A stretch of 64,000 nucleotides of DNA from Flavobacteriales bacterium (GCA_016124845.1 WGMW01000003.1:27824-91823); one strand, 5' to 3'; counted from the stretch's first letter, positions 7,133 to 45,644 are shown. Program-made: numbers and translations. The notes: a model not told the origin generated them from the sequence alone.

Positions 7133-7325
7133 GTCACCCTGAACTCGTTTCAGGGTCTGTGGTTACAAGGTTCTATGTGGATTCAGATGCTGAAACAAGT
7201 TCAGCATGACGCTTCGAGTTATCACACTGCATACGAGAGCGTGTCACCCTGAACTTGTTTCAGGGTCTATCCAATTTGGAACTATGGAATAGATGCTGAA
7301 TCCGCCTGAGGCGGACAGCATGACG
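7133..7325. repeat. Cluster of four hairpin repeats from the two-hairpin element family, in the GTCACCCTGAAC(T/A)(T/C)GTTTCAGGGTC and ATGCTGAAACAAGTTCAGCATGAC forms.
   Basis: Hairpins at 7133-7158, 7185-7211, 7241-7268 and 7291-7325. The last has an extra inner palindrome, CCGCCTGAGGCGG. Confidence 0.7.
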
Positions 7326-7346
7326 CTCCGATGGAGGTTAACAGAG

Positions 7347-7447
7347 GATTACTGCGCCATCAACCCCAACCAGCCGTACTGCTCACGCGTGGTAGGCCCC
7401 AAACCGGAGAAATTCAGAAAGGTGTTTAAGGATAGGTTGAAGAACTA
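7347..7447 (+). repeat. Duplicated 3'-terminal fragment of msrA of about 100 bp.
   Basis: GATTACTGCGCCATCAACCCCAACCAGCCGTACTGCTCACGCGTGGT...GGTGTTTAAGGA...TAA aligns to 6575-6677 at roughly 85% identity. Confidence 0.75.
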
Positions 7448-8503
7448 AGGGTTCAATTTGTAGTAGAGCAGGCATTTCTCTCCAATGACATCTCCATCTT
7501 CATTGAAGGTGTCGACAATAACTCCCAATCCAAGTACTTTCTTCTCGAACCTGAGGTTTTCGGGGTCGAAAAACCATTCTTCATCAAAGCGAAGTTTCTT
7601 GATTGTAGTCCAATCAGAAAGTTCATAACTGTGAGCTTGAATTTTGTTGTCCGTCATACCGGACAATAATGGGTCACTTGAATACCAATTGGATCTACCA
7701 TAAAAGAGGGTGGCTAGACCCGTATTGACGTATTCCGTTCTTTCAATGAGACTGTCAAACGGAAATTCACCCCAGAATGCTGGCAACGGAGTTACTGTAT
7801 CTCGAAGTGCATCAAACTTTAACGCACCAAAAAAACGTTCTCTTTTGGATGGCTCTAGGTAGTTGTGCCACCAGTTATAGTCGTTACACTCATTCTCTTG
7901 CGTTTTTGTAACGGGAACATCATAAATTATCCTACCAAGTGAGAATTTTTCTTGAAAAGAATTGATAGTGCTGTCATTGAGTGACGTGTAGTAATTACAG
8001 GTCATGCCAATGTTATGGGTGTATTTATCTTGAAAAAGAATGACTCCATTTACAACCTTTTTGAACACATTCGTTTTTTCATCATAGTGCCAGCTTTCTA
8101 AGAATGAAAGACTGTTTATCAGGTTTCTGTGTACCTGATTATCTCTTAACGCGTTTTTCCCCTTTTCACATTTGTACTGAATACTATCGTTCCATGAAAA
8201 ACGACCTTCGGCAAGTGCATGTCTCAACTTATTGAAAGGTTGAACCATATTTCCAACCTGATCGCCCCAATAATAGCTCGCTTGTAGTTTCCCATCTCGA
8301 ATTAAGTCGCACAGTTGATTTATGGCCTTGGTTTTTGATGAGTCGTCCAAAAACTCATAATAGTCACCAACCTTGCTCTTCTTTCCGTCAAATCTTACCG
8401 TGTAGATTATTCTATCAGTTATTTCTTCAAATGATTGTGCTCTTACATGGCCTCCATAAAGGCTGAGAAGTACTAGAAGCGAAAAGATGCGAAATGGATT
8501 CAT
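7445..8503 (-). CDS. Hypothetical secreted protein of 352 aa.
   Basis: Signal peptide MNPFRIFSLLVLLSLYGGHVRA. GC is lower than in neighbouring genes. No motif recognised. Confidence 0.5.
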   Translation of the reverse strand: MNPFRIFSLLVLLSLYGGHVRAQSFEEITDRIIYTVRFDGKKSKVGDYYEFLDDSSKTKAINQLCDLIRDGKLQASYYWGDQVGNMVQPFNKLRHALAEGRFSWNDSIQYKCEKGKNALRDNQVHRNLINSLSFLESWHYDEKTNVFKKVVNGVILFQDKYTHNIGMTCNYYTSLNDSTINSFQEKFSLGRIIYDVPVTKTQENECNDYNWWHNYLEPSKRERFFGALKFDALRDTVTPLPAFWGEFPFDSLIERTEYVNTGLATLFYGRSNWYSSDPLLSGMTDNKIQAHSYELSDWTTIKKLRFDEEWFFDPENLRFEKKVLGLGVIVDTFNEDGDVIGEKCLLYYKLNP

Positions 8504-8506
8504 TCC

Positions 8507-9976: not shown

Positions 9977-10008
9977 GTTATTTATTGAACAGATGGGTAC
10001 ATGTGTTT

Positions 10009-10091
10009 AGCCACAGATGCACAGATTGACACTGATTTTCACAGAGAATATTTAATCCGTGTTTTCTGTGAAAATCTGTGCATCTGTGGCT
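10009..10091. repeat. Long palindromic intergenic element from the AGCCACAGA...TCTGTGGCT family.
   Basis: AGCCACAGATGCACAGATTGACAC...GTGAAAATCTGTGCATCTGTGGCT. The two arms are near-perfect reverse complements. Confidence 0.75.
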
Positions 10092-11793
10092 ATAAAATGT
10101 TCTGTTTCTTTTCGGCAGGAGTCAATTCCTGAATCCAAGAATTATCATACGGAACGAATATACCCGAATTGTCGGCTTCTTCTTTGGTGATTTTCGTATC
10201 CACGTAATGCGCCAATACCTTGAACGCAGTTGGTTTCATGTCTTTCAGTACCAGCAACGCGGTGTTCATGCCCGATTTAACGGCTATGGGAACGCCACCG
10301 CCAAGGTCTGCCCAATGGCCACCAAGCCAAAGGTTCTTCACGGGCGTTCTGTGCCCCGCAATTTTGGCCTGCATGTTTGCCTTTCCAGGGCGCGCACCCA
10401 TCAGCGAGCCATCGCGGTTTCCCGTGTAGCGCCAGTGCGTAATAGGCGTTGCGATGTCGCAATACTCAATGTGCGAACGGATGTCCTTGCCGAGTTTCTT
10501 CTCCACGCGGTCAATGAGCACATCTGCATATTCCTGCTTGAATTTCTTGTACGCCTCGCCACGTTTCAGATGACCGTGTTCATCGATTTCCGTCATCCAT
10601 TGCTCATTCTGATGGAACCGTGCGTAGCAGTAAATGGTCATGGTGCCTTTGCCTTTCGGTGCCAATGATGGGTCGCGGAACGAAGGAGCGAGAACGCTGA
10701 TGCCCGCTTTGTGCGGGTCGCCTGCGTTGTGCTCCGTGCGTTTCACATCATCACGCACAATGAAAAGCATGGCGTCATCCAGACCGAGTTCTTCCACAGG
10801 GCAATTCAGTGCTAAGTTGATGGTCACAGCCGAGCTGTAGAGTTCCGCGTCCTTCAGTTTCTTCTTGATGGTGGTTGGAACAGCCGTGTCGGGAAGCATC
10901 TTCTCATACAGCGTTTCCACATCGCAAGCGGCAATGATGTGCTTGGCTTTTACGGTGAATTTCTCGCCTTTTCTGTCGAGGGTGACGCCCTTGGCCTGCC
11001 CATTTTCCAGTTCAATTTTCTCAACCCGATATTGGAAATGAACGTCATTTCCGAGTTTCTCGGTCACGTATTGCAACCACTCAGGAAATACCTGACTTCC
11101 ACCTTTCGGTGGACTCTGATAATCGCTATAATACGCCCATCCGATAGGCACCAACGCAGAAAGCAATTCCTCTTCCGACCCAAAGATTTTCAGCATTTCA
11201 GGGTCTTTGAAGTAGCGCTGCAATCCTTTCACCGTTCCTTCGGGTCCTGTAAAACGGATGTGCTTCAGAAACGCCATTGCGAATTCCAACCGTTGCATGT
11301 TGAAGAAGAATTTCTCCAAGAAACCCATTGTTTCCAACGAACGCGAGAAAGCGGGCAGTCCGTCAAACGACTTTCCTATCTGCTTGGCATCCTTGAAAAA
11401 GCGTTCAATGCCGTCCTTCTCGTGCAGGAACTTGGCAATGAGCTCTGCTTTCAGTTCATCGGGATTGTTGGTGAGATGATAGCTGTACGTATCGCCCACA
11501 TATCGCTTGATGTTCGGCTGAATTTCTGCCACAGGATGGTCGTTTCCAATGAAATCGAAAACGCGGGTTACCAGACCTCGCGGTCCGCACTGGTTCAACC
11601 AATGAATGGCGCTATCAAAACGGAAATCCTTCCTGCGGAAACCTGCCAGATAACCCCCTGGCCGACTGTCCATTTCGAAAACGCCAACGGAAAGTCCAGC
11701 ACGGCTTAGCAGCGCAGCAGAGGTCAGTCCGCTAACGCCCGCACCGATGACAACCACATCGTAGGATGGTTTGATGGGTTGGTGACGCATCAA
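10090..11793 (-). CDS. FAD-dependent oxidoreductase of the phytoene-desaturase (CrtI) / amine-oxidase family.
   Basis: DVVVIGAGVSGLTSAALLSRAGLSVGVFE...PGG is the Rossmann FAD motif. Length 567 aa. Confidence 0.7.
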   Translation of the reverse strand: MMRHQPIKPSYDVVVIGAGVSGLTSAALLSRAGLSVGVFEMDSRPGGYLAGFRRKDFRFDSAIHWLNQCGPRGLVTRVFDFIGNDHPVAEIQPNIKRYVGDTYSYHLTNNPDELKAELIAKFLHEKDGIERFFKDAKQIGKSFDGLPAFSRSLETMGFLEKFFFNMQRLEFAMAFLKHIRFTGPEGTVKGLQRYFKDPEMLKIFGSEEELLSALVPIGWAYYSDYQSPPKGGSQVFPEWLQYVTEKLGNDVHFQYRVEKIELENGQAKGVTLDRKGEKFTVKAKHIIAACDVETLYEKMLPDTAVPTTIKKKLKDAELYSSAVTINLALNCPVEELGLDDAMLFIVRDDVKRTEHNAGDPHKAGISVLAPSFRDPSLAPKGKGTMTIYCYARFHQNEQWMTEIDEHGHLKRGEAYKKFKQEYADVLIDRVEKKLGKDIRSHIEYCDIATPITHWRYTGNRDGSLMGARPGKANMQAKIAGHRTPVKNLWLGGHWADLGGGVPIAVKSGMNTALLVLKDMKPTAFKVLAHYVDTKITKEEADNSGIFVPYDNSWIQELTPAEKKQNIL

Positions 11794-13037
11794 GCTTTGG
11801 CCTTGGCCATCTTTTCAATATCCACCACCTGAGCCAGCGTGCGGATGATGGTGTTGTGCTTGCTCACGAACGGATTTGTCTTGTCCCAAACATAGCCTGC
11901 AAGCACAGAAGTGAGTTGCTTTTTCATCAACGGGTTGATGTTCACGTGGAAGAAGATCTTCTGCAAATTGCCTGTGTACCATTCCTTCACATAGGTTCGG
12001 AAAACGTCAATACCGTATTCCAAAAACTCCACGTAATCTTTCTGCCAATCGACTTGTTCGCCTTTCAGTTGGCGGTCAACCAGCTTAGCAGCGGTAATTC
12101 CAGATTGCGTTGCGAACGCCACACCCGAAGAGAAAACAGGGTCGAGGAACTCGGTGGTGTTTCCTGTAAGCACGTAGCGGTCACCGAAGAAACGGTCGGA
12201 ATGACGCGTGTAATCGCCATGCACTTTCGGTTCGAACATGTAGGTCTTATCCTTGAAACGCTCTGCGAATTTCTTCGACCGCTTGAACATATTATTGAAG
12301 GCCGCATTCACATCGGCACCGTCCTGCGTAAACTCATCGAAGTATTTCTTGTTGCCCACAAAACCAAGCGAAGTAATGCCATTATTGAACGGAATCACCC
12401 ACAGCCAAAGGTCTGTTTCGAGGATGTCGAAAGAGATCTGCATCGGTGTTGGGAACGTGTCGCGCGTATCGTCCAGAAAGTGCGTGTAAGTGGCCATGTT
12501 ACTCGTTGGCGAAACATGTGTTGGAATTTCCAGCATCTTGGCCAGAACGCCACCGTAGCCGCTGCTATCTACCACAAATTGGGCTGTGTAATCCACAGTT
12601 CCAGTTGGTGTGTTGACGTTGAAGCGCACTACATCCTCATCAAAACTCAGGTCGCCAAGCGTGCTCTCATAAAGGATTTCAACGCCTTTCTTTTCGGTTT
12701 CATCTGCCAACGTTTTGTCAAATTCGCCTCGCGGGGCTTGCCAGGCGTAGGTCCAGCCAGGCGTGAAATTATCATCGAACGAAATACGGAATTCAATACC
12801 GTCTCGGATGAAAAGCGCTCCTTCCTTGATTTCGAATTGCTTCTCTTCCAAAGCGGGGAGAAGGCCTGTTTCCTCATAATGTTCCATCGAAATGGGAAGC
12901 AGACTCTCACCGATCACAAAGCGTGGAAACTTGGCGCGTTCCACAATCGTGACCTTGTAACCCTGATTGGCCAAATGCGAAGCGGCCACCGATCCAGATG
13001 GTCCTGCTCCTATGACTAAGACATCAATATTTTTCAT
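11790..13037 (-). CDS. Flavin-dependent halogenase of the tryptophan-halogenase family.
   Basis: VLVIGAGPSGSVAAS is the GxGxxG. TDLWLWVIPFNNG carries the WxWxIP motif diagnostic of flavin halogenases. Confidence 0.7.
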   Translation of the reverse strand: MKNIDVLVIGAGPSGSVAASHLANQGYKVTIVERAKFPRFVIGESLLPISMEHYEETGLLPALEEKQFEIKEGALFIRDGIEFRISFDDNFTPGWTYAWQAPRGEFDKTLADETEKKGVEILYESTLGDLSFDEDVVRFNVNTPTGTVDYTAQFVVDSSGYGGVLAKMLEIPTHVSPTSNMATYTHFLDDTRDTFPTPMQISFDILETDLWLWVIPFNNGITSLGFVGNKKYFDEFTQDGADVNAAFNNMFKRSKKFAERFKDKTYMFEPKVHGDYTRHSDRFFGDRYVLTGNTTEFLDPVFSSGVAFATQSGITAAKLVDRQLKGEQVDWQKDYVEFLEYGIDVFRTYVKEWYTGNLQKIFFHVNINPLMKKQLTSVLAGYVWDKTNPFVSKHNTIIRTLAQVVDIEKMAKAKA

Positions 13038-13049
13038 TTACATGGATTT

Positions 13050-13129
13050 GGCCACAGATGCTCAGATTTTCACTGATTCTGCACAGAAAATTGATCAGAG
13101 AAATCTGTGTAAATCCGTGAATCTGTGGC
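13050..13129. repeat. Long palindromic intergenic element from the AGCCACAGA...TCTGTGGCT family.
   Basis: GGCCACAGATGCTCAGATTTTCAC...GTGAATCTGTGGC. Confidence 0.7.
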
Positions 13130-13139
13130 GTTAAAGTGT

Positions 13140-14654
13140 TCACTCGGTGTCCTTAATTCGTTTTAATAATTGCTTCTTATCCAAAAATTGACTGCATGTG
13201 ACGATTGAACTGATGGTAACACCAAAGATGCCATGCAGGTTCAAATATTGTCCAGTCAACCAAAGGTTGGGGATTTTTGTTTGCGGAGAGATGAAATTCG
13301 TCAGCCCTCTGCGGAAATCTTTTTCGGTTCCGTACATGTTTCCATCATCATTGCCGATGTAATCGCGGAAAGTAAGCGGGGTTGAAGCATGCACACTTTG
13401 AATGCAGTTTCTGATCTCAGGGAAACGCTTTTCAACCGCATCCAATAACTGTTCGGTTTTCTGATGTTTCCAAGCTTCGTAATCGGATGGGCGTTCGTGC
13501 GGGGAAACAATCGTGTTCTGCGAATTCGCCCATTGTTCCACTTCATCAAACCGCATGTAGGTCATGATGGAAATGCCGTCTGCCCATTCATCCGACTTTG
13601 AAGTGGCGGGCGTGCAAAGCAGGTATTGCAACGGCCATTCAGCTTCCGTGTAATCAGGTTTGGCCCAAACATGATTGGAAGTGTGGTGATAAACATTGTA
13701 GTTCAGATACGGGAACGATTGTGGCTTGCAAACGATGTGCACCGAAAAGCTGGAAAGCGTGTGTAGAGCGCGCTGAAACCGATTGTAAAATGACGGTTTG
13801 AAATGCTCCTTTCCGATCATCTGCAACAGCACTTTCGGTTGAATGTTGGAGATGAAATTCTTGCCTTGGAAGGTTTCTCCGTCTTCGGTTTTCGCGGCCG
13901 TGAGTTGACCACTTTCCAGTTCAAAACCGACCACTTTCTTTCTTCGCAGCACTTCACCGCCTTTCTCGCGGATGCGCTTGGAAAGTTCCTTGGCCAATTG
14001 CGAACCGCCATCCACGCAACGGTATGCGCTCAACACATATCCATGCGTGACCAACGCATGAATATAGAGTGGACACTTCTCAGCAGAACCCGCGTAAAGC
14101 AAGTTTGAACCCGCCAGGACTGCCCGTAATTTCGGGTTGAGTGTAAGTCCATCGATCAACTCTTTGGCACCAAGACCCAATAGGCCGATGTCTGTATGGT
14201 CTTGCTCCGAGAATTCAAGTTGATCCAACGGGAACGTGGTCACGGTTTCCTGAATGGTTCGGCTGTAAAGTTGAATGGCTTTTTCTTCATCAGGAAACTC
14301 CTTGATCAATTCGTCTTCGAAAGCTTCCCAAGAACTGGTATGATGGAATTTCGAGCCGTCATCAAAACTTATTTGGTCGAAATGGTTGTCCATCTTCTTC
14401 CATTTCACACTTTCTGTAAGTCCGAAGTATTTGAAGTAGGAGTGAAGTGGTTGGCCTTCGTCCAGCGCGGGCAGATAATGCACGCCTGTATCGAAAACCG
14501 TTTTGTCCCTACTGAAAACCTGTAACGAGCCGCCCAACTGTTGGTTCTTTTCCAGCACACAGATACTGAAACCATGGTCAGCCAAGATGTAAGCACATTG
14601 CAAGCCACCCAGCCCACTACCAATGATCACGAAATCGTACACCTTCTCCGTCAT
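13140..14654 (-). CDS. FAD-dependent oxidoreductase, CrtI / retinol-saturase-like.
   Basis: MTEKVYDFVIIGSGLGGLQCAYILADHGFSICVLEKNQQLGGS. The track extends this to a TTG at 14672. The ATG at 14654 is the more likely start. Confidence 0.7.
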   Translation of the reverse strand: MTEKVYDFVIIGSGLGGLQCAYILADHGFSICVLEKNQQLGGSLQVFSRDKTVFDTGVHYLPALDEGQPLHSYFKYFGLTESVKWKKMDNHFDQISFDDGSKFHHTSSWEAFEDELIKEFPDEEKAIQLYSRTIQETVTTFPLDQLEFSEQDHTDIGLLGLGAKELIDGLTLNPKLRAVLAGSNLLYAGSAEKCPLYIHALVTHGYVLSAYRCVDGGSQLAKELSKRIREKGGEVLRRKKVVGFELESGQLTAAKTEDGETFQGKNFISNIQPKVLLQMIGKEHFKPSFYNRFQRALHTLSSFSVHIVCKPQSFPYLNYNVYHHTSNHVWAKPDYTEAEWPLQYLLCTPATSKSDEWADGISIMTYMRFDEVEQWANSQNTIVSPHERPSDYEAWKHQKTEQLLDAVEKRFPEIRNCIQSVHASTPLTFRDYIGNDDGNMYGTEKDFRRGLTNFISPQTKIPNLWLTGQYLNLHGIFGVTISSIVTCSQFLDKKQLLKRIKDTE

Positions 14655-14766
14655 TCGCTGCGAAGGTCGCAAACGCGCGGTTAATTGGATTACGGTGATT
14701 TACGGATGAGGAAATGAAAAACGTGAAACATGTAATTGAAGTTATCTTTTGAGTTAACTTTGCGGT

Positions 14767-15105
14767 GTGGTAAGGAAAATCATCTTCTTCGAAACGCACT
14801 TTATTGAGTTCTATCAGGAGCAGGACGCGAAGGTGAAAGCCAAGATCCAGTACGTGCTTGAACTGATAAAACAGGTTGACCGCGTGCCAGAGAAATTCCT
14901 GAAACACTTGGAGGGAACGGATGGTCTGTATGAGATACGGGTCGAGTTCCAATCGAACATTTACCGCATCTTCTGTTGTTTTGATGAAGGACGGTTGGTG
15001 ATACACTTCAACGGTTTTCAGAAGAAAACGCAGAAGACACCGAAGAACGAAATTGAAAAGGCGCAGCGTTTGATGCGGCAATATTTTGAACAGAAAAGCA
15101 ATTGA
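14767..15105 (+). CDS. Type II toxin of the RelE/ParE superfamily, Gp49/HigB-like.
   Basis: 112 aa. The FYQEQDAKVKAKIQYVLELIKQ...YEIRVEF...RIFC pattern is typical of the phage Gp49-like killer family. Its end overlaps the start of the downstream XRE gene by 4 bp, so the toxin comes first. Confidence 0.65.
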   Translation: MVRKIIFFETHFIEFYQEQDAKVKAKIQYVLELIKQVDRVPEKFLKHLEGTDGLYEIRVEFQSNIYRIFCCFDEGRLVIHFNGFQKKTQKTPKNEIEKAQRLMRQYFEQKSN

Positions 15106-15407
15106 AAATGGACAGATACGCGAACATCAAGGATTTTGACCAGCTTGTTGAACTCGAACATGGAAAGGTCGGTTCTGAAAGTAGAAACCGCTATGAGGAG
15201 AATGCACAGATGTTCATCATCTCTGAGATGTTGAAGGCTGCACGCAAGGAGGCCAATCTTACGCAAGAGCAATTAGCAGAAAAGACAGGCACCAAGAAGA
15301 GCTACATATCCAAATTGGAGAACGCCAAAGGGAACATTCAACTTTCCACGCTCATCCGCATTTTTGAGCAGGGGCTTAACAAGCGAATTGGGCTTACCTT
15401 TCTGTGA
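15102..15407 (+). CDS. HTH_XRE antitoxin, partner of the upstream toxin.
   Basis: LKAARKEANLTQEQLAEKTGTKKSYISKLENAKGN is a canonical XRE helix-turn-helix. Confidence 0.65.
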   Translation: MKMDRYANIKDFDQLVELEHGKVGSESRNRYEENAQMFIISEMLKAARKEANLTQEQLAEKTGTKKSYISKLENAKGNIQLSTLIRIFEQGLNKRIGLTFL

Positions 15408-15417
15408 TGGTTGGAAT

Positions 15418-15502
15418 AGATGCTGAAACAAGTTCAGCATGACGGCAACGGTTTACCATTAAACTTCTCAGAGTGCGTCAACCTGAACTTGTTTCAGGTT
15501 CT
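15418..15502. repeat. Two-hairpin element.
   Basis: AGATGCTGAAACAAGTTCAGCATGACGG at 15418-15445 and GTCAACCTGAACTTGTTTCAGGTTCT at 15477-15502. Confidence 0.7.
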
Positions 15503-15510
15503 GTTTTTCG

Positions 15511-15632
15511 AGATGTACGCACATTGCAGGCCGCCCAGCCCACTACCGATGATCACGAAATCGTACAGCTTCTCCGTCATTCGCTGCGAAGGTCGCAAAC
15601 GCGCGGTTAATTGGATTACGGTGATTTACTGA
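15511..15632. repeat. Duplicate of the 5' end and upstream region of the oxidoreductase gene at 14586-14705, of about 120 bp. It encodes a truncated MTEKLYDFVIIGSGLGGLQCAYIS peptide.
   Basis: It aligns to 14586-14705 with only a few mismatches. It includes the 36-bp motif AAACGCGCGGTTAATTGGATTACGGTGATTTAC. Confidence 0.75.
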
Positions 15633-15635
15633 CTG

Positions 15636-15968
15636 TCACTTCAACACGTCCGCAATGCTTTCATCCTTATCGAAAACGCTTTTCGCATAAGGACAAAGCG
15701 GCAGGATCTTCTTGTTCTCGCGCCTTGCCTTGGAAACTATGGCGTCCAAAAGTTTTCTCCCAACGCCTTGACCGCGGAACTTGTCTGAAACTTCGGTGTG
15801 ATCGATAATGATCAGATCATCTCCAGCGATGGAGTAGGTCATTGCCGCTTCAGGTTTGCTGAATTCGCCAATGTATGCAGCACCTTTGCTGCCTTGTTCT
15901 TTCAGTAGAATTTCCATGGATAGTTTGACAAGCTTGAAGGTAACACCCGAGTTTGTTTGATGGTTCAA
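15636..15968 (-). CDS. GNAT-family N-acetyltransferase (small, YjdJ-like).
   Basis: The FRGQGVGRKLLDAIV acetyl-CoA binding motif is present. Confidence 0.55.
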   Translation of the reverse strand: MNHQTNSGVTFKLVKLSMEILLKEQGSKGAAYIGEFSKPEAAMTYSIAGDDLIIIDHTEVSDKFRGQGVGRKLLDAIVSKARRENKKILPLCPYAKSVFDKDESIADVLK

Positions 15969-16042
15969 TTTTTCGGAAAGCTGGAAAAAGAAAGCGGCCC
16001 GATGGAATTTCCATCGGATCGCCTATTTCAGTGAGTTCAGAA

Positions 16043-16528
16043 TTACTTCTGTGGGCTCATTTTATTGAACATGTAGCGGGCAATTTTCCATTCGCCATTA
16101 ACTTTTTCGAACACGAAAAGCTCGCGGTTTTCTTCTGGAACGGTCTGTCCAAGTGCGTGTATCAGGGTTGTTCCTTTGGATGTAGTTGTGGCAAACGCAA
16201 AGTTGTTCTCTACGGTGATCTCCTCGATGAAGAATTCAATGTTCAGCTGAATTTGCGAGAACACGAATTCATATGCCTTTCTGATATTCTCCGTTCCGTT
16301 GGCAGATGGCGCTTCGGATGGCATGAACACGCCATCTTTCGCATAAAGGCTGGTTGAAAGTTCAGCGTTGGAGGTGTTCAGAGAGGTCTTGTACACTTCC
16401 AGAAGTTGTTCAATCTGTTGTTTGTCTTGTTTTTCCATTGTTGCTGTGTTTTGAGGATTTGACGTTTCGGTTTTTGAGTTACATGCGATGAGTGCCATCG
16501 CGATAATGATTGCTGAGAAATACTTCAT
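16043..16528 (-). CDS. Lipoprotein with an NTF2/SnoaL-like (DUF4440-like) fold.
   Basis: The lipobox ALIACNS is present. The ORF is 161 aa. Confidence 0.45.
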   Translation of the reverse strand: MKYFSAIIIAMALIACNSKTETSNPQNTATMEKQDKQQIEQLLEVYKTSLNTSNAELSTSLYAKDGVFMPSEAPSANGTENIRKAYEFVFSQIQLNIEFFIEEITVENNFAFATTTSKGTTLIHALGQTVPEENRELFVFEKVNGEWKIARYMFNKMSPQK

Positions 16529-16615
16529 GGCGTTTTGTTTTTGGTTCGATACAAAGGTGAACCATGCGAGGCAGCCCCACCCATAAGGTTGATTAAGAAA
16601 TGGTCTTAATGTAGA

Positions 16616-17209
16616 TTAAGATTTGCCATTGCCGAGCACGGTTTCCTTCCGGATCTTACTCAGAAACTCGGGCGTTACGCCAATGTAAGAGGCGATCTGA
16701 ACGTTGGAAATGCGGTTGAAAAGATGCGGATGGTTTTCGAGGAAATCGAGATACCGTTCTTCGGCTGACGAACTGATGTTCTGAAGCACACGCTTCTGAA
16801 GGGCCACAAACGCATCCTCGATCATCACGCGGAAGTTGCGGTCAAACTTGGGGTAGTTGACGTAGAAATGGAGCAGGTCGGGTCGCTCGATCTGAATGAC
16901 CACCGAATTCTCGATGGCTTCGATGTAAAGTTCGCTTGGCTTTTCGGTGTGGAAACTGCCAATGTCGCAGATCCACTCATTCTCAATGGCAAACTGAAGG
17001 TTGTGTTCCTTGCCCGTTCCGTCCACCTTGTACATGCGGAAACAGCCTTCCACCACAAACGTGTAGCGCGTGCAGATATCACCTTCCTGAAGAATGAACT
17101 GGCGTCTTTTTATCCGTCTTTCCGTAGCACGTTTTTCCAACTCCTCAATTTCCTGCTTTTCCAATGGCAGGTAATTAGACAACTGATCGATGACGGGTTG
17201 AAGGTTCAT
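16616..17209 (-). CDS. Crp/Fnr-family transcriptional regulator.
   Basis: An N-terminal cNMP-binding beta-roll and a C-terminal HTH (ASYIGVTPEFLSKIRK). The likely start is MNLQPV at 17209. The track starts at 17239. Confidence 0.7.
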   Translation of the reverse strand: MNLQPVIDQLSNYLPLEKQEIEELEKRATERRIKRRQFILQEGDICTRYTFVVEGCFRMYKVDGTGKEHNLQFAIENEWICDIGSFHTEKPSELYIEAIENSVVIQIERPDLLHFYVNYPKFDRNFRVMIEDAFVALQKRVLQNISSSAEERYLDFLENHPHLFNRISNVQIASYIGVTPEFLSKIRKETVLGNGKS

Positions 17210-17269
17210 TTCGCTTTCCTCAAAACGAAAGTAACACAAGTCAAATTTGGAAACGCGCGGTTAATTGGA

Positions 17270-32701: not shown

Positions 32702-32705
32702 GTCC

Positions 32706-35321: not shown

Positions 35322-35327
35322 TCTGAG

Positions 35328-35981: not shown

Positions 35982-36139
35982 GTTTGAAGGTGGTTGCCCA
36001 AGGTCTGGTATTTCCTTAAAGTACCATAAGTTTCTGAGGGTCTTTGGCTTTTGAAGAGGCTTCCCGGCTCGCGCGAGTGTTCCGAAGGGTCACTCGTGTG
36101 GAGGTAAATACAATCAGTTTCCAAACTGATCTTCAAAGA

Positions 36140-36380
36140 TTAAATAAGATCGCCACTGCCTCCGCTTCCCGTTAGCGTTTGCAACGCGTGCTTTCTTACC
36201 TGAAAACCGCCATCAGTCCTAACCGTCTGATAACCAGCGTTCTCAGTCCACTCCCGATCTATCTCCGTCTTCTCCCGATCATTCTCGGTCGAGTCCCGAT
36301 CATTCTCGGTCGAGTCCCGATCTATCTCGGTCAAGCCCCGATCTATCTCGGTCAAGCCCACGATCTATCTCAGTCTTGCC
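36140..36380. repeat. Left copy of a large inverted repeat. It has about 110 bp of unique sequence plus an array of six 21-bp tandem repeats (CCCGATCWWTCTCGGTCRAGY).
   Basis: Six tandem units at 36253-36380. 36205-36252 is homologous in reverse complement to 53997-54040. ORFs 36140..36361 (-) and 36179..36481 (+) are 7-aa-periodic translations of the array. Confidence 0.7.
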
Positions 36381-36589
36381 CCAAAAATCTACCCTTAAAG
36401 CACCGATCAACCTCTGTTCAGTCCCGGGTATTCACCAAAGGGCAACAACTCATATCAGTTTTAATTAAAAGATGCCAGTAGAACCGCGGCCTTCCCTCTT
36501 GGCTGGTCAGCCTATCATAATCTGAGCCCCCAAAAGAACACGCAAATCCACGTATCCCCGAACTTCCGAACCTTACTAAATTCGCGCCC

Positions 36590-37456
36590 ATGAGCGAATG
36601 GAGCGGAAAGAGTAGAGGAAACGCCTTAGGTTACTGGTTCTTCATCTTCTTTATGAAGCATCTGGGCCTTGGGTTCACCTACGGTTTCCTGCATTTTGTG
36701 GTGCTGTATTTCTTCCTGTTCTCGTGGAGCAGCAGCAAATGGATCTACCGCTACTACCGCGATGGCCTGCGCTATGGCGTACTGAAAAGCATTGCGGGCA
36801 TTTACCGCACCTACTACGTGTTCGGGCAGGTAATTATAGACAAGGTGGCCATGGCATCGGGCATCAAAGACCGCTTTAACCTAACGCACAACGGGGCCGA
36901 GCACATCCGCAACATGGTAGAGAACCAGACGGGCGGCATTCTTATTTCGGGCCACATGGGCAATTGGGAAATAGCCAGCCACCTGATGCGCGGCTATGGC
37001 GGCAAGGTGAACGTGGTGATGTACGATGAGGAGCACCAGCAGATAAAGAAGCAGATGGACGGCACCACGGGCGGCCGCAAGTTCAACGTAATACCCATTA
37101 AGGACGATATTTCGCACGTATTCCTCATCAGTAAAGCCCTGCTGAACAAGGAATTGGTGTGCATACACGGAGACCGCTTCCGCGAAGGCATGCGTACTCT
37201 CAAAGAGGATTTTCTGGGCAAGGAAGCGCAGTTTCCTTACGGTCCGTTTGCCATTGCCGCCAAGTTCGATGTGCCCAAGGTTTTCGTGTACGGCTTTAAG
37301 ACCGGAACGTACGATTACAGCTTCTACTGCACGCAACCCATAGAGGGCAAATTGAAGCCCGAACTTTTACTCACAAAGTATGTTGATGAAATGGCCCACA
37401 TGGTGCGGAAATACCCGAACCAGTGGTTCAATTTTTACGACTTTTGGAAGCCTTAA
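36590..37456 (+). CDS. Lysophospholipid / lipid A-type acyltransferase (LpxL/HtrB-like).
   Basis: N-terminal transmembrane helix. The HxxxxD-type motif GHMGNWE is present. A typical pigment-cluster acyltransferase. Confidence 0.65.
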   Translation: MSEWSGKSRGNALGYWFFIFFMKHLGLGFTYGFLHFVVLYFFLFSWSSSKWIYRYYRDGLRYGVLKSIAGIYRTYYVFGQVIIDKVAMASGIKDRFNLTHNGAEHIRNMVENQTGGILISGHMGNWEIASHLMRGYGGKVNVVMYDEEHQQIKKQMDGTTGGRKFNVIPIKDDISHVFLISKALLNKELVCIHGDRFREGMRTLKEDFLGKEAQFPYGPFAIAAKFDVPKVFVYGFKTGTYDYSFYCTQPIEGKLKPELLLTKYVDEMAHMVRKYPNQWFNFYDFWKP

Positions 37457-37464
37457 CATGAGTT

Positions 37465-37568
37465 AGCCACAGATTCACGGATTAGCACTGATTTTTCACA
37501 GAATATATTCGCAAAGCGAAAAGAAAACAATCTGTGTTTTTTCTGTGAAAATCTGAGCATCTGTGGCT
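37465..37568. repeat. Palindromic family element.
   Basis: AGCCACAGATTCACGGATTAGCAC...GTGAAAATCTGAGCATCTGTGGCT. Confidence 0.7.
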
Positions 37569-37584
37569 CTTACATGTTTTTTGA

Positions 37585-39312: not shown

Positions 39313-39534
39313 ATGTTGGTCATGAGCACGAAAGAACTGATTTCGAAAATAGACGCGCTTCCTCCTGAATTCCGAAGGGAAGTGGAAGATTTCATTGACT
39401 TTCTGAAGCAGAAATTGGAACGTGAGGAAACGAAGAAACCTCTTGAAAAACGACAGTTCGGCTATGCCAAGGGCTTTTTCAAAATGTCTGACGATTTCGA
39501 TGAACCATTGGAGGATTTCAAAGATTATATGTGA
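39313..39534 (+). CDS. Antitoxin (DUF2281-like) paired with the downstream PIN toxin.
   Basis: 73 aa. Its end overlaps the start of the downstream PIN gene by 4 bp. Confidence 0.5.
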   Translation: MLVMSTKELISKIDALPPEFRREVEDFIDFLKQKLEREETKKPLEKRQFGYAKGFFKMSDDFDEPLEDFKDYM

Positions 39535-39917
39535 TGAATATTCTCCTTGATACGCACGCGTTTGTTTGGTTCATGAACGCGGATGGTAAGTTTCCTAAGC
39601 ATCTTATCAAGGACATTGAGAATTTTGAGAACACCTGCTATTTGAGTGTTGCCAGCCTTTGGGAAATGGCCATCAAGGTAAATCTTGGTAAACTTGAACT
39701 GGTTGATGATTTCGAGAACATTCTGGAATTCTGTTCTTCCAACAGGATTATTCTTCTGCCCATTGAATTCGAAGACACACGGTCGGTAATTGGTCTTCCA
39801 GACCATCATCGCGACCCTTTCGATAGAATGTTAGTGGTTCAGGCCAATCGGCAAGAGGCAATTCTCCTTACCAAAGACCGCATGTTTGACCGCTATGAAG
39901 TTCAGACCCGTTGGTAA
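39531..39917 (+). CDS. vapC: PIN-domain ribonuclease toxin (VapC).
   Basis: ILLDTHAFVWF carries the first acidic residue, SLWEMAIK the second, and the later DPFDRMLVVQA the third. Confidence 0.65.
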   Translation: MMNILLDTHAFVWFMNADGKFPKHLIKDIENFENTCYLSVASLWEMAIKVNLGKLELVDDFENILEFCSSNRIILLPIEFEDTRSVIGLPDHHRDPFDRMLVVQANRQEAILLTKDRMFDRYEVQTRW

Positions 39918-39955: not shown

Positions 39956-40558
39956 TTGAGTTTGAGCCTGAAAACATATTGCCGCATCAAGGACAACGAG
40001 GTTCACATCAATGGCGAACTCTTCTGTCAGCACATGGACGAGGAACCATTCCTACGGTCGGTTTACAAGCACATCGGGCTCAGTTACCCGAAGTTCTTCA
40101 AGATGGATGCGCTTTCGCAACTTGGTTTCCTTGGTGCCGAAATGACGCTGATGCGTTCCGAATTGGAAACGTATGCCGATGATGAAGTGGCGGTGGTGTA
40201 TTCCAACCGTTCCTCCAGTTTGGAAACAGACCATGCGTACTACAACTCGCTGAAGGAAAGCGGCATTGCCAGTCCTGCGCTGTTCGTGTACACGCTTCCG
40301 AACATTGAAGTGGGCGAGATATGCATCCGCCACAAGTTGTATGGCGAGAACAACTTCCTAATCACCGAGCGGTTTGATGCTGCGCAACTCTTGGAGCAAT
40401 GCGAGGCGCTGTTCGCGGATAATGCCGCCAAGGCCGTGCTCATTGGCTGGACCGAAGTGAATGGAGAGGAACACGATGGTTTCTTCGCGTTCATCACCAA
40501 CTCAGGAGTTGACGAATTGACAGCGGAACATTTGACAGATTTGTATTTAGACAGATGA
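39956..40558 (+). CDS. KAS-related protein lacking the catalytic Cys, chain-length-factor-like.
   Basis: ALFVYTLPNIEVGEICIRHKLYGENNFL resembles the region around the KAS active site, but has no Cys. Confidence 0.45.
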   Translation: MSLSLKTYCRIKDNEVHINGELFCQHMDEEPFLRSVYKHIGLSYPKFFKMDALSQLGFLGAEMTLMRSELETYADDEVAVVYSNRSSSLETDHAYYNSLKESGIASPALFVYTLPNIEVGEICIRHKLYGENNFLITERFDAAQLLEQCEALFADNAAKAVLIGWTEVNGEEHDGFFAFITNSGVDELTAEHLTDLYLDR

Positions 40559-40567
40559 ACATGATAA

Positions 40568-40649
40568 AGCCACAGAAACACAGATTTACACAGAATGAAA
40601 AAGGAATTTTTTCTGTGAAAACCTCAGTGTCTTCAGTGCCTCTGTGGCT
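40568..40649. repeat. Palindromic family element.
   Basis: AGCCACAGAAACACAGATTTACACAGAA...TTCTGTGAAAACCTCAGTGTCTTCAGTGCCTCTGTGGCT. Confidence 0.75.
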
Positions 40650-40664
40650 AACTTATGTGAATGA

Positions 40665-41858
40665 ATGATGGAGATTGCTGTCACAGGCATAGGAGCGATT
40701 TCGGCCATCGGCAACGATGTGCAGGAAAACTTGGCTTCGCTTTTAGCGAAGAAAACAGGCGTTGGTAAAACCGAACTGCTCAGATCCAAGCTCACAGAAA
40801 CACATCTTTTAGGAGAAGTGAAGTTGAGCAACGACCAACTGAAAGCAGGCCTGAACTGGAAAGGCGATGCTGTTTCCAGAACCACGCTTCTGAGTTCTTG
40901 GGCCATGAAAGAGGCCATCGAGCAATCGGGTTTTGAGATGGACAACCATGTTGGGTTGGTGTCATCGACCTCGGTAGGCGGCATGGACAGAAGCGAGGGC
41001 TTCTTCGAGCCTTACTACCTCGAACAGGACTTTTCGAATGTGTTCCTACTCGGAACGCACGATTGCGGCACCTGTACCAAACAGGCCGCAGCGCATTTCG
41101 GCATTACAGGATATGCAACAACCATAAGCACGGCCTGTTCTTCTGCCGCCAATGCCATTGCAATGGGCGCACGCTTGCTACGTCAAGGCAAGTTGAAGCG
41201 CGTCATCGTGGGCGGAACAGATGCCTTGTGCCGATTTACGGCCAATGGCTTCAACTCGTTGATGATCTTGGACACGGAATGGTGCAAGCCGTTCTCTGCC
41301 AATCGCGCTGGATTGAACTTGGGAGAAGCTGCGGCTTATCTCGTGCTGGAAAGCAAGGAAGAGGCGGAAGCACGTGGCGCGAAGATCCACGGTCTGGTAA
41401 CAGGTTGGGCCAATACGAACGATGCGTACCATCAAACGGCTTCATCACCTGATGGAAATGGGGCGTTCATGGCCATGTCGCAAGCGTTGGAGAAAGCAGG
41501 TTTGAAGTCGACAGACATCGGCTACATCAACGCCCACGGTACTGGCACACAGAATAACGACCAGTCGGAAAGTATTGCCATCCACCGAGTTTTTGGGGCG
41601 CAGAAACCGCCTATCAGTTCTACCAAAGCTTATACAGGTCATACGTTGGCTGCGGCTGGAGCCATTGAGGCGGTGTATTCGCTATTGGCGTTGAAGGAGC
41701 AAAAGTTCCTTCCCAATTTGAACTATCAGGACCCGATTGAGGACAACGATTGGAAACCGCAGTTGGAAGTGGAGAGTGGTGAGATTAATCATGTGCTTTC
41801 CAACTCATTCGGGTTTGGCGGTAATAATTCAACGGTGATTTTTAGTAGGTACAGTTGA
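40665..41858 (+). CDS. Beta-ketoacyl-ACP synthase II-like.
   Basis: ISTACSSAANAI is the active Cys. NAHGTGTQNND and TGHTLAAAGAIE follow. GFGGNNS is at the C-terminus. Confidence 0.8.
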   Translation: MMEIAVTGIGAISAIGNDVQENLASLLAKKTGVGKTELLRSKLTETHLLGEVKLSNDQLKAGLNWKGDAVSRTTLLSSWAMKEAIEQSGFEMDNHVGLVSSTSVGGMDRSEGFFEPYYLEQDFSNVFLLGTHDCGTCTKQAAAHFGITGYATTISTACSSAANAIAMGARLLRQGKLKRVIVGGTDALCRFTANGFNSLMILDTEWCKPFSANRAGLNLGEAAAYLVLESKEEAEARGAKIHGLVTGWANTNDAYHQTASSPDGNGAFMAMSQALEKAGLKSTDIGYINAHGTGTQNNDQSESIAIHRVFGAQKPPISSTKAYTGHTLAAAGAIEAVYSLLALKEQKFLPNLNYQDPIEDNDWKPQLEVESGEINHVLSNSFGFGGNNSTVIFSRYS

Positions 41859-41875
41859 CATGATTGAGCCACAGA

Positions 41876-41958
41876 TGCACAGATTTACACAGAAATTTCA
41901 CAGAGATTTATTTTCTCCGTGTATCTCAAATACTCCAGTTTTCTCTGTGCAATCACCA
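41876..41958. repeat. Palindromic family element with a degenerate right arm.
   Basis: AGCCACAGATGCACAGATTTACACAGAAATTTCACAGAG...TTTTCTCTGTGCAATCACC. Confidence 0.6.
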
Positions 41959-43657: not shown

Positions 43658-44412
43658 ATTTCCTGCGACTGAATATCCTTGCCATCGGGTTGGTGTTGGT
43701 CTTGTTGCCTGCCATCACGTTGGGATTTGTTCCGTGGTGGTCGCTGCTCATTCTGTTAGCGGTTTATTCGGTCATTCTCGGCTGGGGCGTGTTCGATATC
43801 GGCTCACAGTTCTTTATGAAAACATATTGGAAAGGCGAGCCTGGGAAAATCGCCATCACGTTTGATGATGGTCCGCACCCCGAACATACGCCACGAATTT
43901 TAGATGTTCTGAGGCAGGAAAATGTAAAGGCCACCTTTTTCTGCATTGGCAGGAATGCCGAGAAAAATCCATTATTGCTGAAGGAAATGTTCGAAGATGG
44001 ACACACCATCGGAAATCACACGTACAACCACGCATATGTGTTTTCTAAGTCGGCTGCGGAGCGGCAAGTGACAGAAGGACAGGAAGCAATTCAGAATATC
44101 ATTGGCAAAAAGACGATGTATTTCCGTCCGCCATTTGGCGTGATGACGCCTGAAATTGCCCGTGCGGTGAAGAAGGAAAACTGTGTGGTCATTGGCTGGG
44201 ATTTGCGTTCGCGGGACGGAACAACCAAATCGAAAGACCTTATTCTAAAACGCGTGAAAAAGCTTTTGAACGGCTCGTCCATTCTTCTTTTTCACGACAC
44301 GAACCCCGTTACGTCCGAGGCTCTGCGAGAAGTTATTCATCTTTGCCGTGAGAATGGCATGAAGATCGTTTCGTTGCCCGAACTCGTTGGCGTTGAACCT
44401 TATCATGCGTAG
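43654..44412 (+). CDS. Polysaccharide deacetylase (NodB homology domain).
   Basis: ITFDDGPHPEHT contains the DD of the TFDDG motif. GHTIGNHTYNH is the His-His metal-binding motif. Confidence 0.8.
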   Translation: MNFLRLNILAIGLVLVLLPAITLGFVPWWSLLILLAVYSVILGWGVFDIGSQFFMKTYWKGEPGKIAITFDDGPHPEHTPRILDVLRQENVKATFFCIGRNAEKNPLLLKEMFEDGHTIGNHTYNHAYVFSKSAAERQVTEGQEAIQNIIGKKTMYFRPPFGVMTPEIARAVKKENCVVIGWDLRSRDGTTKSKDLILKRVKKLLNGSSILLFHDTNPVTSEALREVIHLCRENGMKIVSLPELVGVEPYHA

Positions 44413-45031
44413 AACTCTTACGATTTTCCTTTGTCTCGTTTTCCCATTTTTCCTCTCAGCACAGGATTGGAAAAGCTTGGACGCTAACGACCCGATGCTA
44501 AAAGGACTCAAATCGACCTTGGATGGCATGACGAGCATCAAAGGCGATATTCAGCAGGAGAAGTCGTTCGCTTTTCTCACAGAGAAACTCATCTCCAAAG
44601 GCGTTTTCATCTACCAGAAGGAGAGTAAACTGCGCTGGCAGTTCAATGAGCCTATTGAGTACATCATTCTCATCAACGAGAATTCGATGCGCCTGAAGGA
44701 AGATGGCGAGGAGAAGAAGTACAAGGGGATGAACCAGATCCTGCGGCAGGTGAAGGAGATCATTCTCGGCTGCATTGATGGTTCTATCATGAGCAACGCG
44801 AATTACAAGACGGTATTTTCGACCAACGGAACTAACATCCGAATTCAGCTACAACCGAAGGAGAAGAACCTGAAGGAGTTCATTCAACAGATAGAGGTGC
44901 AGTTTGCCAAGGAAGGCTCGGTATTGAAAAAGGTAACTTTGACCGACCCTTCGGGCGATATGACCGATATTTTCTTCTCCAACGTGAAAACAAACCAACT
45001 GAACGATGCGCGCGTTTTTGCTGATTTTTAG
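44387..45031 (+). CDS. LolA-like outer-membrane lipoprotein carrier.
   Basis: Signal peptide. Its size and position in a pigment cluster fit a LolA-like protein. The motif-level call is moderate. Confidence 0.5.
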   Translation: MALNLIMRRTLTIFLCLVFPFFLSAQDWKSLDANDPMLKGLKSTLDGMTSIKGDIQQEKSFAFLTEKLISKGVFIYQKESKLRWQFNEPIEYIILINENSMRLKEDGEEKKYKGMNQILRQVKEIILGCIDGSIMSNANYKTVFSTNGTNIRIQLQPKEKNLKEFIQQIEVQFAKEGSVLKKVTLTDPSGDMTDIFFSNVKTNQLNDARVFADF

Positions 45032-45563
45032 TCTGTTGGTTTCTTCCGCAGCTGTTGCGGGGCAAGGTATAGAGATACTTCCGCGCGGCAAGGAGGCTAT
45101 CTACAAAGCGGAGATCAAAGTGACGGGAACGACCATTACGGGTTTTCTTGCGGTACAGCATAAGCGCAACGATGTACTTCACGTAGAATTTACTTCGCCT
45201 ATGGGCAATAACCTTTTGGAGATGGAGTGGAAGAAAGGTCGCTGGAAGAAGATCTATGCGACCAAGAAATTGAGCGGTCGGGTCATATTTGACATGATGG
45301 CGGAGGATATTCTGCTTCTATTTGCGCACTATCAGTACGACAAGGATTTTGTGGATCTTGGCGATGAATGGACGTGGGACAAAAAGAAACTGCTTCCCGT
45401 TTTTGAAGATGGAAAGCTGACTTCTGTAAAGGTGGTCACACGCAGACATCATCCAACCAGAACTGTGAAATACGAGCATGGTGCGGAGTGCATTGAGAAG
45501 TTGAATATTGATCATCAGGGATTTCCGTTTGGAATCGTGCTTGAACCATTGAAGAAAAAGTAA
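45006..45563 (+). CDS. Hypothetical secreted protein associated with the pigment cluster.
   Basis: Signal peptide MRAFLLIFSLLVSSAAVAG. Confidence 0.45.
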   Translation: MRAFLLIFSLLVSSAAVAGQGIEILPRGKEAIYKAEIKVTGTTITGFLAVQHKRNDVLHVEFTSPMGNNLLEMEWKKGRWKKIYATKKLSGRVIFDMMAEDILLLFAHYQYDKDFVDLGDEWTWDKKKLLPVFEDGKLTSVKVVTRRHHPTRTVKYEHGAECIEKLNIDHQGFPFGIVLEPLKKK

Positions 45564-45584
45564 TCGAGTTTTAACACCTTTGCG

Positions 45585-45644
45585 GTCATGCTGAACTCGT
45601 TTCAGCATCTAATCAATAGACCCTGAAACAAGTTCAGGGTGACG
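45585..45644. repeat. Two-hairpin element in inverted orientation relative to 27090-27151.
   Basis: GGTCATGCTGAACTCGTTTCAGCATCTAATCAATAGACCCTGAAACAAGTTCAGGGTGACG. Confidence 0.75.

Follow-up and report, generated by a model that had tools for sequence, protein, structure and literature searches.

The DNA analysed here is a 64,000-nt stretch from a Flavobacteriales metagenome-assembled genome (GCA_016124845.1, WGMW01000003.1:27824-91823), referred to below as the window. It carries short hairpin repeats at five loci (cluster A and pairs B to E) and, beside cluster A, a gene for a small GIY-YIG nuclease, named ssn in this work; the hairpins are likely to be sites on which this nuclease acts. 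The window also contains a flexirubin-type lipid/polyketide cluster that includes genes for an aromatic amino acid lyase, ketosynthases, an acyl carrier protein (ACP), an MMPL-acyltransferase-methyltransferase fusion, LolA, a deacetylase, a GT2-DUF2062 protein and a FabA-like protein. An initial annotation of this DNA had described the repeat as a two-hairpin element and had linked it to insertion junctions.

The repeat core, CTGAAACAAGTTCAG, was found 11 times in the window at up to two mismatches (0.17 expected), and the full 25-nt unit, GTCANNCTGAACTTGTTTCAGNNTC, was also found 11 times at up to three mismatches (0.00 in 100 shuffles). These canonical copies follow the formula (C/T)GTC-A-NN-CTGAA-CTTGT-TTCAG-NN-T-C; all of them have an 8-bp stem and a 5-nt loop, and their first stem pair is always A-T. 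Two stem subtypes were distinguished, CC/GG and TG/CA (with one AC/GT copy), in which the second stem pair is C-G and T-A, respectively. Two more copies with expanded loops bring the total to 13 in 64 kb. The GTC head and the 3' C showed no exception in the 11 canonical copies, and over all 13 the tag was CGTC in seven, TGTC in four, GGTC in one and a degenerate CGCC in one. The invariant C is followed by T and then by A or G. Since conservation ends 1-2 nt past the 25-nt hairpin, the hairpins are not part of a larger element with ends of its own. The copies and the nuclease gene are as follows, the strand of each hairpin being the one that reads GTC...C:

6674-7081, minus strand: ssn homologue encoding a single-domain GIY-YIG nuclease (Pfam); 135-aa open reading frame (ORF), domain at residues 1-95
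6690-6733, plus strand: degenerate CC/GG hairpin with head GCC and a nested hairpin in its expanded loop
7133-7157, plus strand: CC/GG hairpin, tag TGTC (cluster A)
7186-7210, minus strand: TG/CA hairpin, tag CGTC (cluster A)
7243-7267, plus strand: CC/GG hairpin, tag TGTC (cluster A)
7293-7325, minus strand: TG/CA hairpin, tag CGTC, with nested hairpin CCGCCTGAGGCGG in its loop (cluster A)
15419-15443, minus strand: TG/CA hairpin (pair B, heads inward)
15477-15501, plus strand: AC/GT variant of the CC/GG type (pair B)
18628-18652, minus strand: TG/CA hairpin with loop variant TTTAT (pair C, heads inward)
18684-18708, plus strand: CC/GG hairpin (pair C) that provides the last codons and the TGA of the MMPL gene
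27091-27115, plus strand: CC/GG hairpin (pair D, heads outward, 10-nt spacer), downstream of the ACP gene
27126-27150, minus strand: TG/CA hairpin (pair D)
45585-45609, plus strand: TG/CA hairpin (pair E, heads outward, 9-nt spacer)
45619-45643, minus strand: CC/GG hairpin (pair E)

Unlike subtypes were always paired, in inverted orientation and across spacers of 9-33 nt, with heads outward in four pairs (7133/7186, 7243/7293, 27091 and 45585) and inward in three, among them those at 15419 and 18628. These results agreed with the initial annotation in the existence and coordinates of the repeat, and in a core shared in opposite orientation by hairpins with different stems, CC/GG being always paired with TG/CA. 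The fourth hairpin that it had placed in the first cluster (7293-7325) is real and contains the nested hairpin. All the copies it listed were found, but the degenerate one at 6690-6733 had been overlooked, and the order given for the unit (GTCACC... and then ...CATGAC) holds for the four outward pairs and is reversed at 15419 and 18628. As single-stranded DNA (ssDNA), a single hairpin folds with about -7 kcal/mol, and an inverted pair can alternatively form a single long mismatched hairpin of -17 to -22 kcal/mol. The hairpin at 6690-6733 folds, as DNA, with -13.7 kcal/mol (z = -3.4); it overlaps the ssn ORF at the 3' end of the latter and lies 12 nt past the stop codon of msrA. In a relative (L209) the orthologous position is occupied by an intact hairpin. 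The five loci are all intergenic, between co-directional genes. No Rfam family matched the hairpins, either at gathering thresholds or in E-value mode, and a literature text search for the core sequence found no paper.

The ssn product contains a Pfam GIY-YIG domain (E = 1.3e-14), and its C-terminal tail is a read-through of the loop-expanded hairpin 6690-6733; the gene has this hairpin at its 3' end and four upstream. A total of 668 homologues were obtained at E <= 1e-5, most of them of 90-112 aa. Residues Y7, Y18 and E65 were invariant in the aligned homologues, one position off residues Y6, Y17 and E64 of SsnA from Neisseria meningitidis, mutation of which abolishes activity. SsnA is a 94-aa GIY-YIG protein of the Ssn clade (CDD cd10448), and its motif, NTS (CGTCATTCCCGCGMAVGCGGGAATC), is bound as ssDNA and cut a few nucleotides upstream. 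Nine of the 28 aligned homologues ended in (D)PETSSG, which corresponds to the translated hairpin. No NCBIfam model gave an Ssn-specific label for the window protein, and a PDB sequence search with it returned only distant UPF0213 GIY-YIG structures.

In order to look at the association from the side of the gene, 80 metagenomic loci encoding homologues were scanned with a detector for GTC, a palindrome of at least 7 bp and a C. Within 200 nt of the gene, hairpin density was 4.4/kb upstream and 4.7/kb downstream, falling to 0.02-0.2/kb beyond 500 nt, that is, hairpins were 20- to 200-fold denser near the gene. Heads pointed outward in 52 of 66 upstream and 54 of 70 downstream hairpins. At least one side carried a hairpin within 300 nt in 63 of the 80 loci, and both sides did in 42; for Ssn homologues, flanking by the motif has been reported in 71%, and on both sides in 42% (Chenal 2025, PMC11893778). 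The flanking hairpins were mostly of the CTGAACTTGTTTCAG type, with unlike subtypes on the two sides. Homologues 38-52% identical to the window protein were flanked by canonical NTS (L194, GTCATTCCCGCG...CGCGGGAATC) or by close variants (L159, L160 and L197). The three closest homologues (L203 to L205, 77-84% identical) each have a gene neighbourhood unrelated to those of the other two, and TG/CA and CC/GG hairpins form alternating arrays on either side of the gene; a TG/CA(+) hairpin precedes the start by about 15-20 nt in all three, and in L203 a CC/GG(-) hairpin stands at the stop. The initial annotation had taken the GIY-YIG gene for an insert; far from being unrelated cargo, it is, on the basis of its hairpin-flanked homologues and the conserved Y7/Y18/E65, the probable cognate nuclease. 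As a separate observation, L203 (5766-6823) and L205 (4963-6553) contain runs of 9-10 hairpins in which TG/CA(+) and CC/GG(-) alternate strictly and the spacers are repeated. These runs resemble bacterial interspersed and neisserial intergenic mosaic elements (BIMEs and NIMEs) and are larger than the four-hairpin cluster of the window.

An exact-pattern scan with one genome per species gave at least 120 loci, and viral contigs gave 96 stretches. As to the cross-species search proposed with the initial annotation, the same hairpin occurs in many phyla among the matches listed, which included Sphingomonadales (copies with tail CCA), many Bacteroidota, Treponema, Endomicrobium, Gastranaerophilales, Nitrospirota, Gracilibacteria and others. 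Among these matches, the two free stem positions were complementary in 147 of 153 instances, with eight pair types (shuffles: mean 42, maximum 58); the scan pattern fixed GTC and C, and the 153 instances are therefore no independent evidence on those bases. This covariation is strong evidence that the stem itself is selected. Neighbouring hairpins in the 120 genome loci listed were inverted in 98 of 108 pairs, 82 of those 98 being heterodimers.

The window hairpins were compared with several known systems. The CGTC-tagged repetitive extragenic palindromes (REPs) have a CGTC or TGTC tag (CCTC allowed), a stem of 8-9 bp and a loop of 4-5 nt (Di Nocera 2013, PMC3733652). Their stem opens with A-T and then T-A "almost invariably", the tail consensus is CCA, dimers are mostly heterodimeric (CGTC-2/3), and they occur in five phyla, Bacteroidetes and Spirochaetes included; no dedicated transposase was noted, and dRS3 is family CGTC-1 (PMC3733652). 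The window hairpins share with them the CGTC/TGTC tag, the A-T-opening 8-bp stem, the 5-nt loop, the heterodimers and the location between co-directional ORFs, sometimes running into coding ends. The family is found in Bacteroidetes, Spirochaetes and Alphaproteobacteria. In the window the tail reads C-T-A/G and not CCA, although sphingomonad copies of this hairpin do have CCA, and the second pair of the CC/GG subtype is C-G; in 2013 a partner protein was not yet known. By its 8-bp stem and 5-nt loop, matched to the text description of the family, the window repeat is probably CGTC-2.

The second point of comparison is the Ssn/NTS system, in which cleavage depends most on the three nucleotides that precede the palindrome, and binding on the C that follows it (PMC11893778). 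Ssn acts on ssDNA only and on one strand only (Chenal 2025, PMC11893778), and in Neisseria it measurably alters recombination of NTS-bearing DNA. Both systems have a small single-domain GIY-YIG protein whose gene is bracketed by inverted hairpins with heads outward, a motif made of GTC, a palindrome A...T and C, copies that are numerous, intergenic and clustered, and a comparable share of hairpin-flanked homologues, some of them with canonical NTS. The window differs in stem and loop (CTGAA/TTCAG and the 5-nt CTTGT, versus TTCCCGCG and a 3-4-nt loop), in the strict heterodimers of two stem subtypes, and in its Flavobacteriales host, Bacteroidota being absent from the discussion in the text of PMC11893778.

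REP/BIME systems and those formed by REP doublets and REP-associated tyrosine transposases (REPIN-RAYT) also consist of short tagged palindromes, inverted dimers and alternating arrays read as ssDNA hairpins, and in REPIN-RAYT a single-copy partner gene is bracketed by repeats. The differences lie in the tag (GTAG, not CGTC), in the enzyme (an HUH/Y1 covalent intermediate versus a GIY-YIG hydrolytic nuclease) and in the spread, the window hairpin sequence being common to several phyla. REPs are usually species-specific. The dRS3/NIME repeats of Neisseria are alike in forming hairpin arrays with variable spacers near variable genes, with a proposed role in recombination, and differ in stem sequence and taxon; dRS3 is used as an integration site by phages or IS110-type recombinases. 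Two candidates were rejected: a REPIN/RAYT system, by the CGTC/TGTC tag (not GTAG/GTGG) and the absence of a Y1_Tnp domain in the 60 window ORFs scanned; and an integron attC array, because the ends are GTCA...TGAC, no attC cores RYYYAAC...GTTRRRY were present, no integrase was found in the scanned window ORFs and hairpins are missing from most cargo boundaries. A classical miniature inverted-repeat transposable element (MITE) is not supported, as no target-site duplication flanked pairs C and E (two sites, short alignments).

Six relatives were found by means of the MMPL protein, 81-93% identical to that of the window. Their hairpins numbered three, plus one decayed copy, over about 120 kb, against 13 in the 64 kb of the window; hairpin pairs are present or absent site by site among these close relatives. 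Two long duplications of neighbouring gene ends bear on the comparison:

6574-6677, plus strand: functional 3' end of msrA, left copy of a 104-nt duplication
7345-7448, plus strand: displaced copy of the msrA 3' end, 88% identical
14585-14706, no strand assigned: 5' end and upstream region of the FAD oxidoreductase gene, left copy of a 122-nt duplication
15511-15632, no strand assigned: right copy of the 122-nt duplication, 95% identical

At site A, the msrA duplication brackets the ssn-hairpin module, and the displaced copy begins about 5-20 nt from the head of the outermost hairpin (7293-7325). The relative L209 has the same duplication, more decayed, around a heads-outward hairpin pair and has no ssn there. 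Since the arrangement is shared, the duplication is older than the split between the window and L209; ssn would then have been lost later from L209, or gained in the lineage of the window between existing hairpins. The gldN-like neighbour, looked up by exact protein, was found only in short contigs ending at repeats. Pair B lies 7-9 nt from the right copy of the oxidoreductase duplicate; in L210 the oxidoreductase gene is likewise adjacent to the Gp49/HTH cassette, with neither hairpin nor duplicate, and on the other side of the pair it is L309 that agrees with the window. Being L210-like on one side and L309-like on the other, pair B marks a recombinant joint.

Pair C was absent from all six relatives, including L309, which has the same higBA cassette. 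Since L309 is colinear through higBA and the MMPL end, pair C is a solo insertion. It replaced about 17 nt, native stop codon included: as had been proposed from the window, the hairpin supplies the stop codon of the MMPL-acyltransferase-methyltransferase gene (product of 1263 aa with the annotated start and of 1310 aa with the first TTG), the TGA being the complement of 18701-18703 inside the hairpin stem. In the relatives the protein ends differently and has no hairpin there. The left synteny break of a 9.6-kb low-GC segment is 74 nt away from pair D, which lies inside the segment; at the position of this pair L210 has hairpins and lacks the island, L308 has a different island and no hairpins, and L309 has 6 bp. 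Pair E is contained in a 92-nt spacer between two co-directional genes of the flexirubin-type cluster; in L310 these genes overlap (ATGA).

The 9.6-kb segment at pair D (27017-36598, GC about 0.40) lies between the ACP gene and a lipid-A-type acyltransferase gene. It codes for a 1717-aa protein without Pfam match, a protein of 549 aa that weakly matches TCAD9 and APH-kinase, and two members of the OMP-decarboxylase family, and may represent a system for conflict or defence. Of the relatives, L308 carries another island at this junction, L210 a stretch of 769 bp and L309 one of 6 bp.

The other hot spot is the junction between the MMPL and oxidoreductase genes, 35-36 bp apart in L209 and L310 and separated by about 4 kb of cargo in the window. 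The cargo region (14585-18732) includes a Gp49/HTH toxin-antitoxin pair, GNAT, SnoaL and Crp-like genes, a membrane protein gene and higBA. The MMPL 3' end is present in three window copies (18701-18732, 17773-17804 and 17206-17237), as is the region upstream of the oxidoreductase gene (14671-14706, 15597-15632 and 17251-17286), and these copies are arranged as flank-cargo-flank units. The region has the appearance of a tandem stack of foreign alleles, all of one locus, a layout that serial one-sided or Campbell-type recombination would leave. Hairpin pairs stand at two of the MMPL/oxidoreductase joints; the remaining joints have none, and most cargo boundaries between 14.7 and 18.7 kb are likewise free of hairpins. 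It is repeated copies of its flanks, and not hairpins, that give this hot spot its structure.

These comparisons qualified the junction claims of the initial annotation. Copies were said to sit at insertion junctions: cluster A and pair B do abut duplications, and pair D is near an island break, but C and E are solo and cargo-free. The toxin-antitoxin (higBA) junction was not made by hairpins, since L309 is colinear there without them. For the left edge of the island, pair D is indeed close to the break, but the hot spot has been used without hairpins too (L308). The suggestion of a mobile element or hot-spot marker retains some ground in pairs that are insertion-polymorphic and sometimes at joints, and loses some because relatives vary without hairpins. 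In the comparison with the six relatives, cluster A and pair B stand at duplicated or recombinant joints, and the relatives also have variable regions lacking hairpins. Since L207, L308 and L309, and L210 at the MMPL/oxidoreductase hot spot, carry different cargo with no hairpins, the hairpins are not needed for variability. They are themselves inserted DNA, sometimes found at rearrangement joints, and neither necessary nor sufficient for local variability.

A high-GC metagenomic contig (L164) carries an ssn homologue with its own hairpin variant, GTCATCCCGAGCG..., and here ssn is bracketed by a 151-nt direct repeat, 94% identical (3684-3834 and 4280-4430). This repeat takes in the 3' end of ssn, the spacer that follows and 16 initial codons of the E1-beta dehydrogenase gene located downstream. 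A search of 56 loci for long direct repeats around ssn gave a mixed picture, several being repeated array spacers; the repeat of L164, the one looked at more closely, proved to be a duplicated end of an adjacent gene. Long duplications of this kind recur around ssn modules: two in the window, one of them common to L209, and one in L164.

Taking all these data together, we consider it likely that the repeats are CGTC-tagged REP/Ssn-related motifs that serve as cis sites of the GIY-YIG nuclease of the Ssn family whose gene is at 6674-7081, and that this protein is probably an ssDNA nuclease recognising the hairpin. On this reading, the nuclease with its hairpins adds a further case to a system already known and does not found another. 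A mechanism can be proposed by analogy with the enzymes of N. meningitidis, N. elongata, N. wadsworthii and Wolbachia, from which we infer binding, cleavage and an effect on recombination. In ssDNA states (replication, repair, incoming transforming or conjugating DNA) the 25-nt unit would fold into its 8-bp stem and 5-nt loop, and Ssn would read the stem together with the 5' GTC tag and the 3' C, on that strand alone, and place a nick 5' of the tag, at a distance of a few nucleotides. Inverted pairs would offer one site per strand, and the use of two stem subtypes would weaken the alternative long hairpin or cruciform. The consequences would be trimming of ssDNA and recombinogenic ends beside the hairpins, which would account for the pairs at some rearrangement junctions.

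Several observations weigh against this interpretation. The published SRM pattern, HGTCWYN(0-2)YYVSBRHN(0-5)WNVSBRGN(0-2)RNCYNB, had no match in the window; it matched NTS test sequences and not the CTGAA variant, because it demands a G+C-rich stem, and not because of tag or tail. Pfam gives GIY-YIG only, and the likeness to SsnA is one of residue positions and hairpin context. An ssn gene was present in the fetched stretch of four of 216 hairpin loci (3 of 120 genome loci and 1 of 96 viral stretches), as expected if there are many sites per gene, so that the hairpin-ssn association is visible only from the gene side. Besides, relatives rearrange the same hot spots without hairpins, and at the heads-inward pairs B and C the predicted cuts fall in the spacer and not at the outer rearranged junctions.

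The hairpins could instead act at the RNA level, as stem-loops in 3' untranslated or intercistronic regions that stabilise mRNA, attenuate read-through or tune neighbouring genes, the link with ssn being secondary. Such a role is compatible with the one proposed above, and a role on mRNA has been proposed for the REPs of Escherichia coli. The five loci are intergenic and between co-directional genes, four of them downstream of higA, the ACP gene, the MMPL gene and a gene for a 185-aa protein, and the other between the gldN-like gene and ssn. CGTC-tagged REPs are mostly downstream of ORFs and plausibly transcribed (Di Nocera 2013, PMC3733652), and an inverted pair would give a stem-loop in a transcript of either strand, with -17 to -22 kcal/mol for the dimers. 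However, no U-tract follows the hairpins, no Rfam family was recovered even in E-value mode, the strand-specific GTC head and C tail (bases fixed in the scan) are kept across phyla, and Ssn shows no RNA binding in vitro (PMC11893778). The clustering of hairpins in fixed orientation around a DNA nuclease gene points to recognition in DNA, and we find the RNA-level explanation rather improbable.

A bolder proposal, to which we give a similarly low rating, is that ssn and its hairpins constitute an autonomous mobile element of a new mechanistic class, with a GIY-YIG ssDNA nuclease in the place of a transposase. Solo pairs would be non-autonomous derivatives, nick-primed copy-in or one-sided recombination would duplicate about 100-150 bp of the adjoining gene end, and horizontal spread would explain a near-identical hairpin in many phyla. 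An insertion sequence-like architecture of Ssn modules has been raised as a hypothesis (Chenal 2025, PMC11893778); if the proposal were true, the flanking duplications and the presence or absence of solo pairs would be its first sequence-level evidence.

It is unlikely that the hairpins are passive, building up in tolerant intergenic DNA with no role in recombination and with their nearness to variable regions as a by-product. This would fit the MMPL/oxidoreductase and ACP/acyltransferase hot spots, which vary without hairpins (L207, L308 and L309), the construction of the first of them from copies of its own flanks, and the two cargo-free pairs among five. It fits less well with pair B and cluster A abutting long duplications within 5-20 nt, with the L164 module, which in another phylum is bracketed by a 151-nt duplication including the start of the neighbour's gene, or with the measurable effect of Neisseria Ssn on recombination of NTS-bearing DNA. 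Finally, that the hairpins are REPIN- or MITE-like non-autonomous miniature transposons moved by a RAYT/Y1 or IS110-type enzyme, with Ssn as a passenger, is very unlikely: inverted REPIN-like dimers able to form a single long hairpin, pairs present or absent among relatives and the frameshifted IS110-family transposase at 1372-2402 would agree with it, but no Y1/RAYT gene was found in the 60 window ORFs scanned, the tag is CGTC/TGTC and not GTAG, no target-site duplication was seen at the clean insertions C and E, conservation extends no more than 1-2 nt beyond the 25-nt hairpin, no hairpin is near the IS110 remnant, ssn is the bracketed gene in the 80 loci, and CGTC REPs have been reported without a dedicated transposase (PMC3733652).

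Other features of the window were recorded as well. IS110 elements often target REPs. The IS110-family transposase (1372-2402, minus strand) consists of two ORFs (DEDD_Tnp_IS110 and Transposase_20), so that it is apparently frameshifted, and has no hairpin nearby. Inside the flexirubin-type cluster, a small antitoxin-like ORF and a PIN-domain toxin gene (39313-39917, plus strand) occupy a place where L210 and L309 have the same kind of pair, the small ORF there being DUF2281. A second, unrelated intergenic repeat family of about 100 nt shows internal inverted symmetry, GCCACAGA..CACAGATTT.CACAGA ... TCTGTGAAAA.CT.TG..TCTGTGGC. Its copies lie at 10000-10101, 13030-13140, 24163-24234, 25122-25226, 25320-25433, 37445-37578, 40556-40651, 41847-41953 and 51723-51812, with a 207-nt tandem duplication at 25184-25518; copies are present too in L210 and L309, and the family gives spurious microRNA matches in the E-value mode of Rfam. 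A 17-nt tandem repeat, GATAGAGTTGACGRAGA, of about 12 units (60719-60936) spans the 3' end of the dihydroorotate dehydrogenase gene and the spacer before an HMGL-like gene, with single related copies at 24132-24153 and 25028-25049. At the right edge of the island there is a 21-nt tandem repeat array (36219-36359) with an inverted copy 17.5 kb away (53916-54010; 90 nt, 87% complementary). A Flavo-1 RNA family match (48652-48723, minus strand; E = 0.0015) was below threshold, reaching 34.5 bits where the gathering score is 42.

The repeat class was catalogued in 2013 (PMC3733652) and its nuclease partner was found in 2025 (PMC11893778). To this known category the cis-site interpretation of the window hairpins adds a Bacteroidota example with a hairpin variant outside the published SRM pattern; since the variant escapes that search pattern, published censuses may under-count the family. 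The close relatives provide a natural series of occupied and empty sites, from which it follows that pairs come and go on their own, and the ends of neighbouring genes, duplicated over long stretches in more than one ssn module, offer a concrete clue to the way these modules are inserted. A near-invariant 25-nt site across distant phyla would also make this enzyme and its site a candidate pair for the ssDNA tools that have been proposed on the basis of Ssn.

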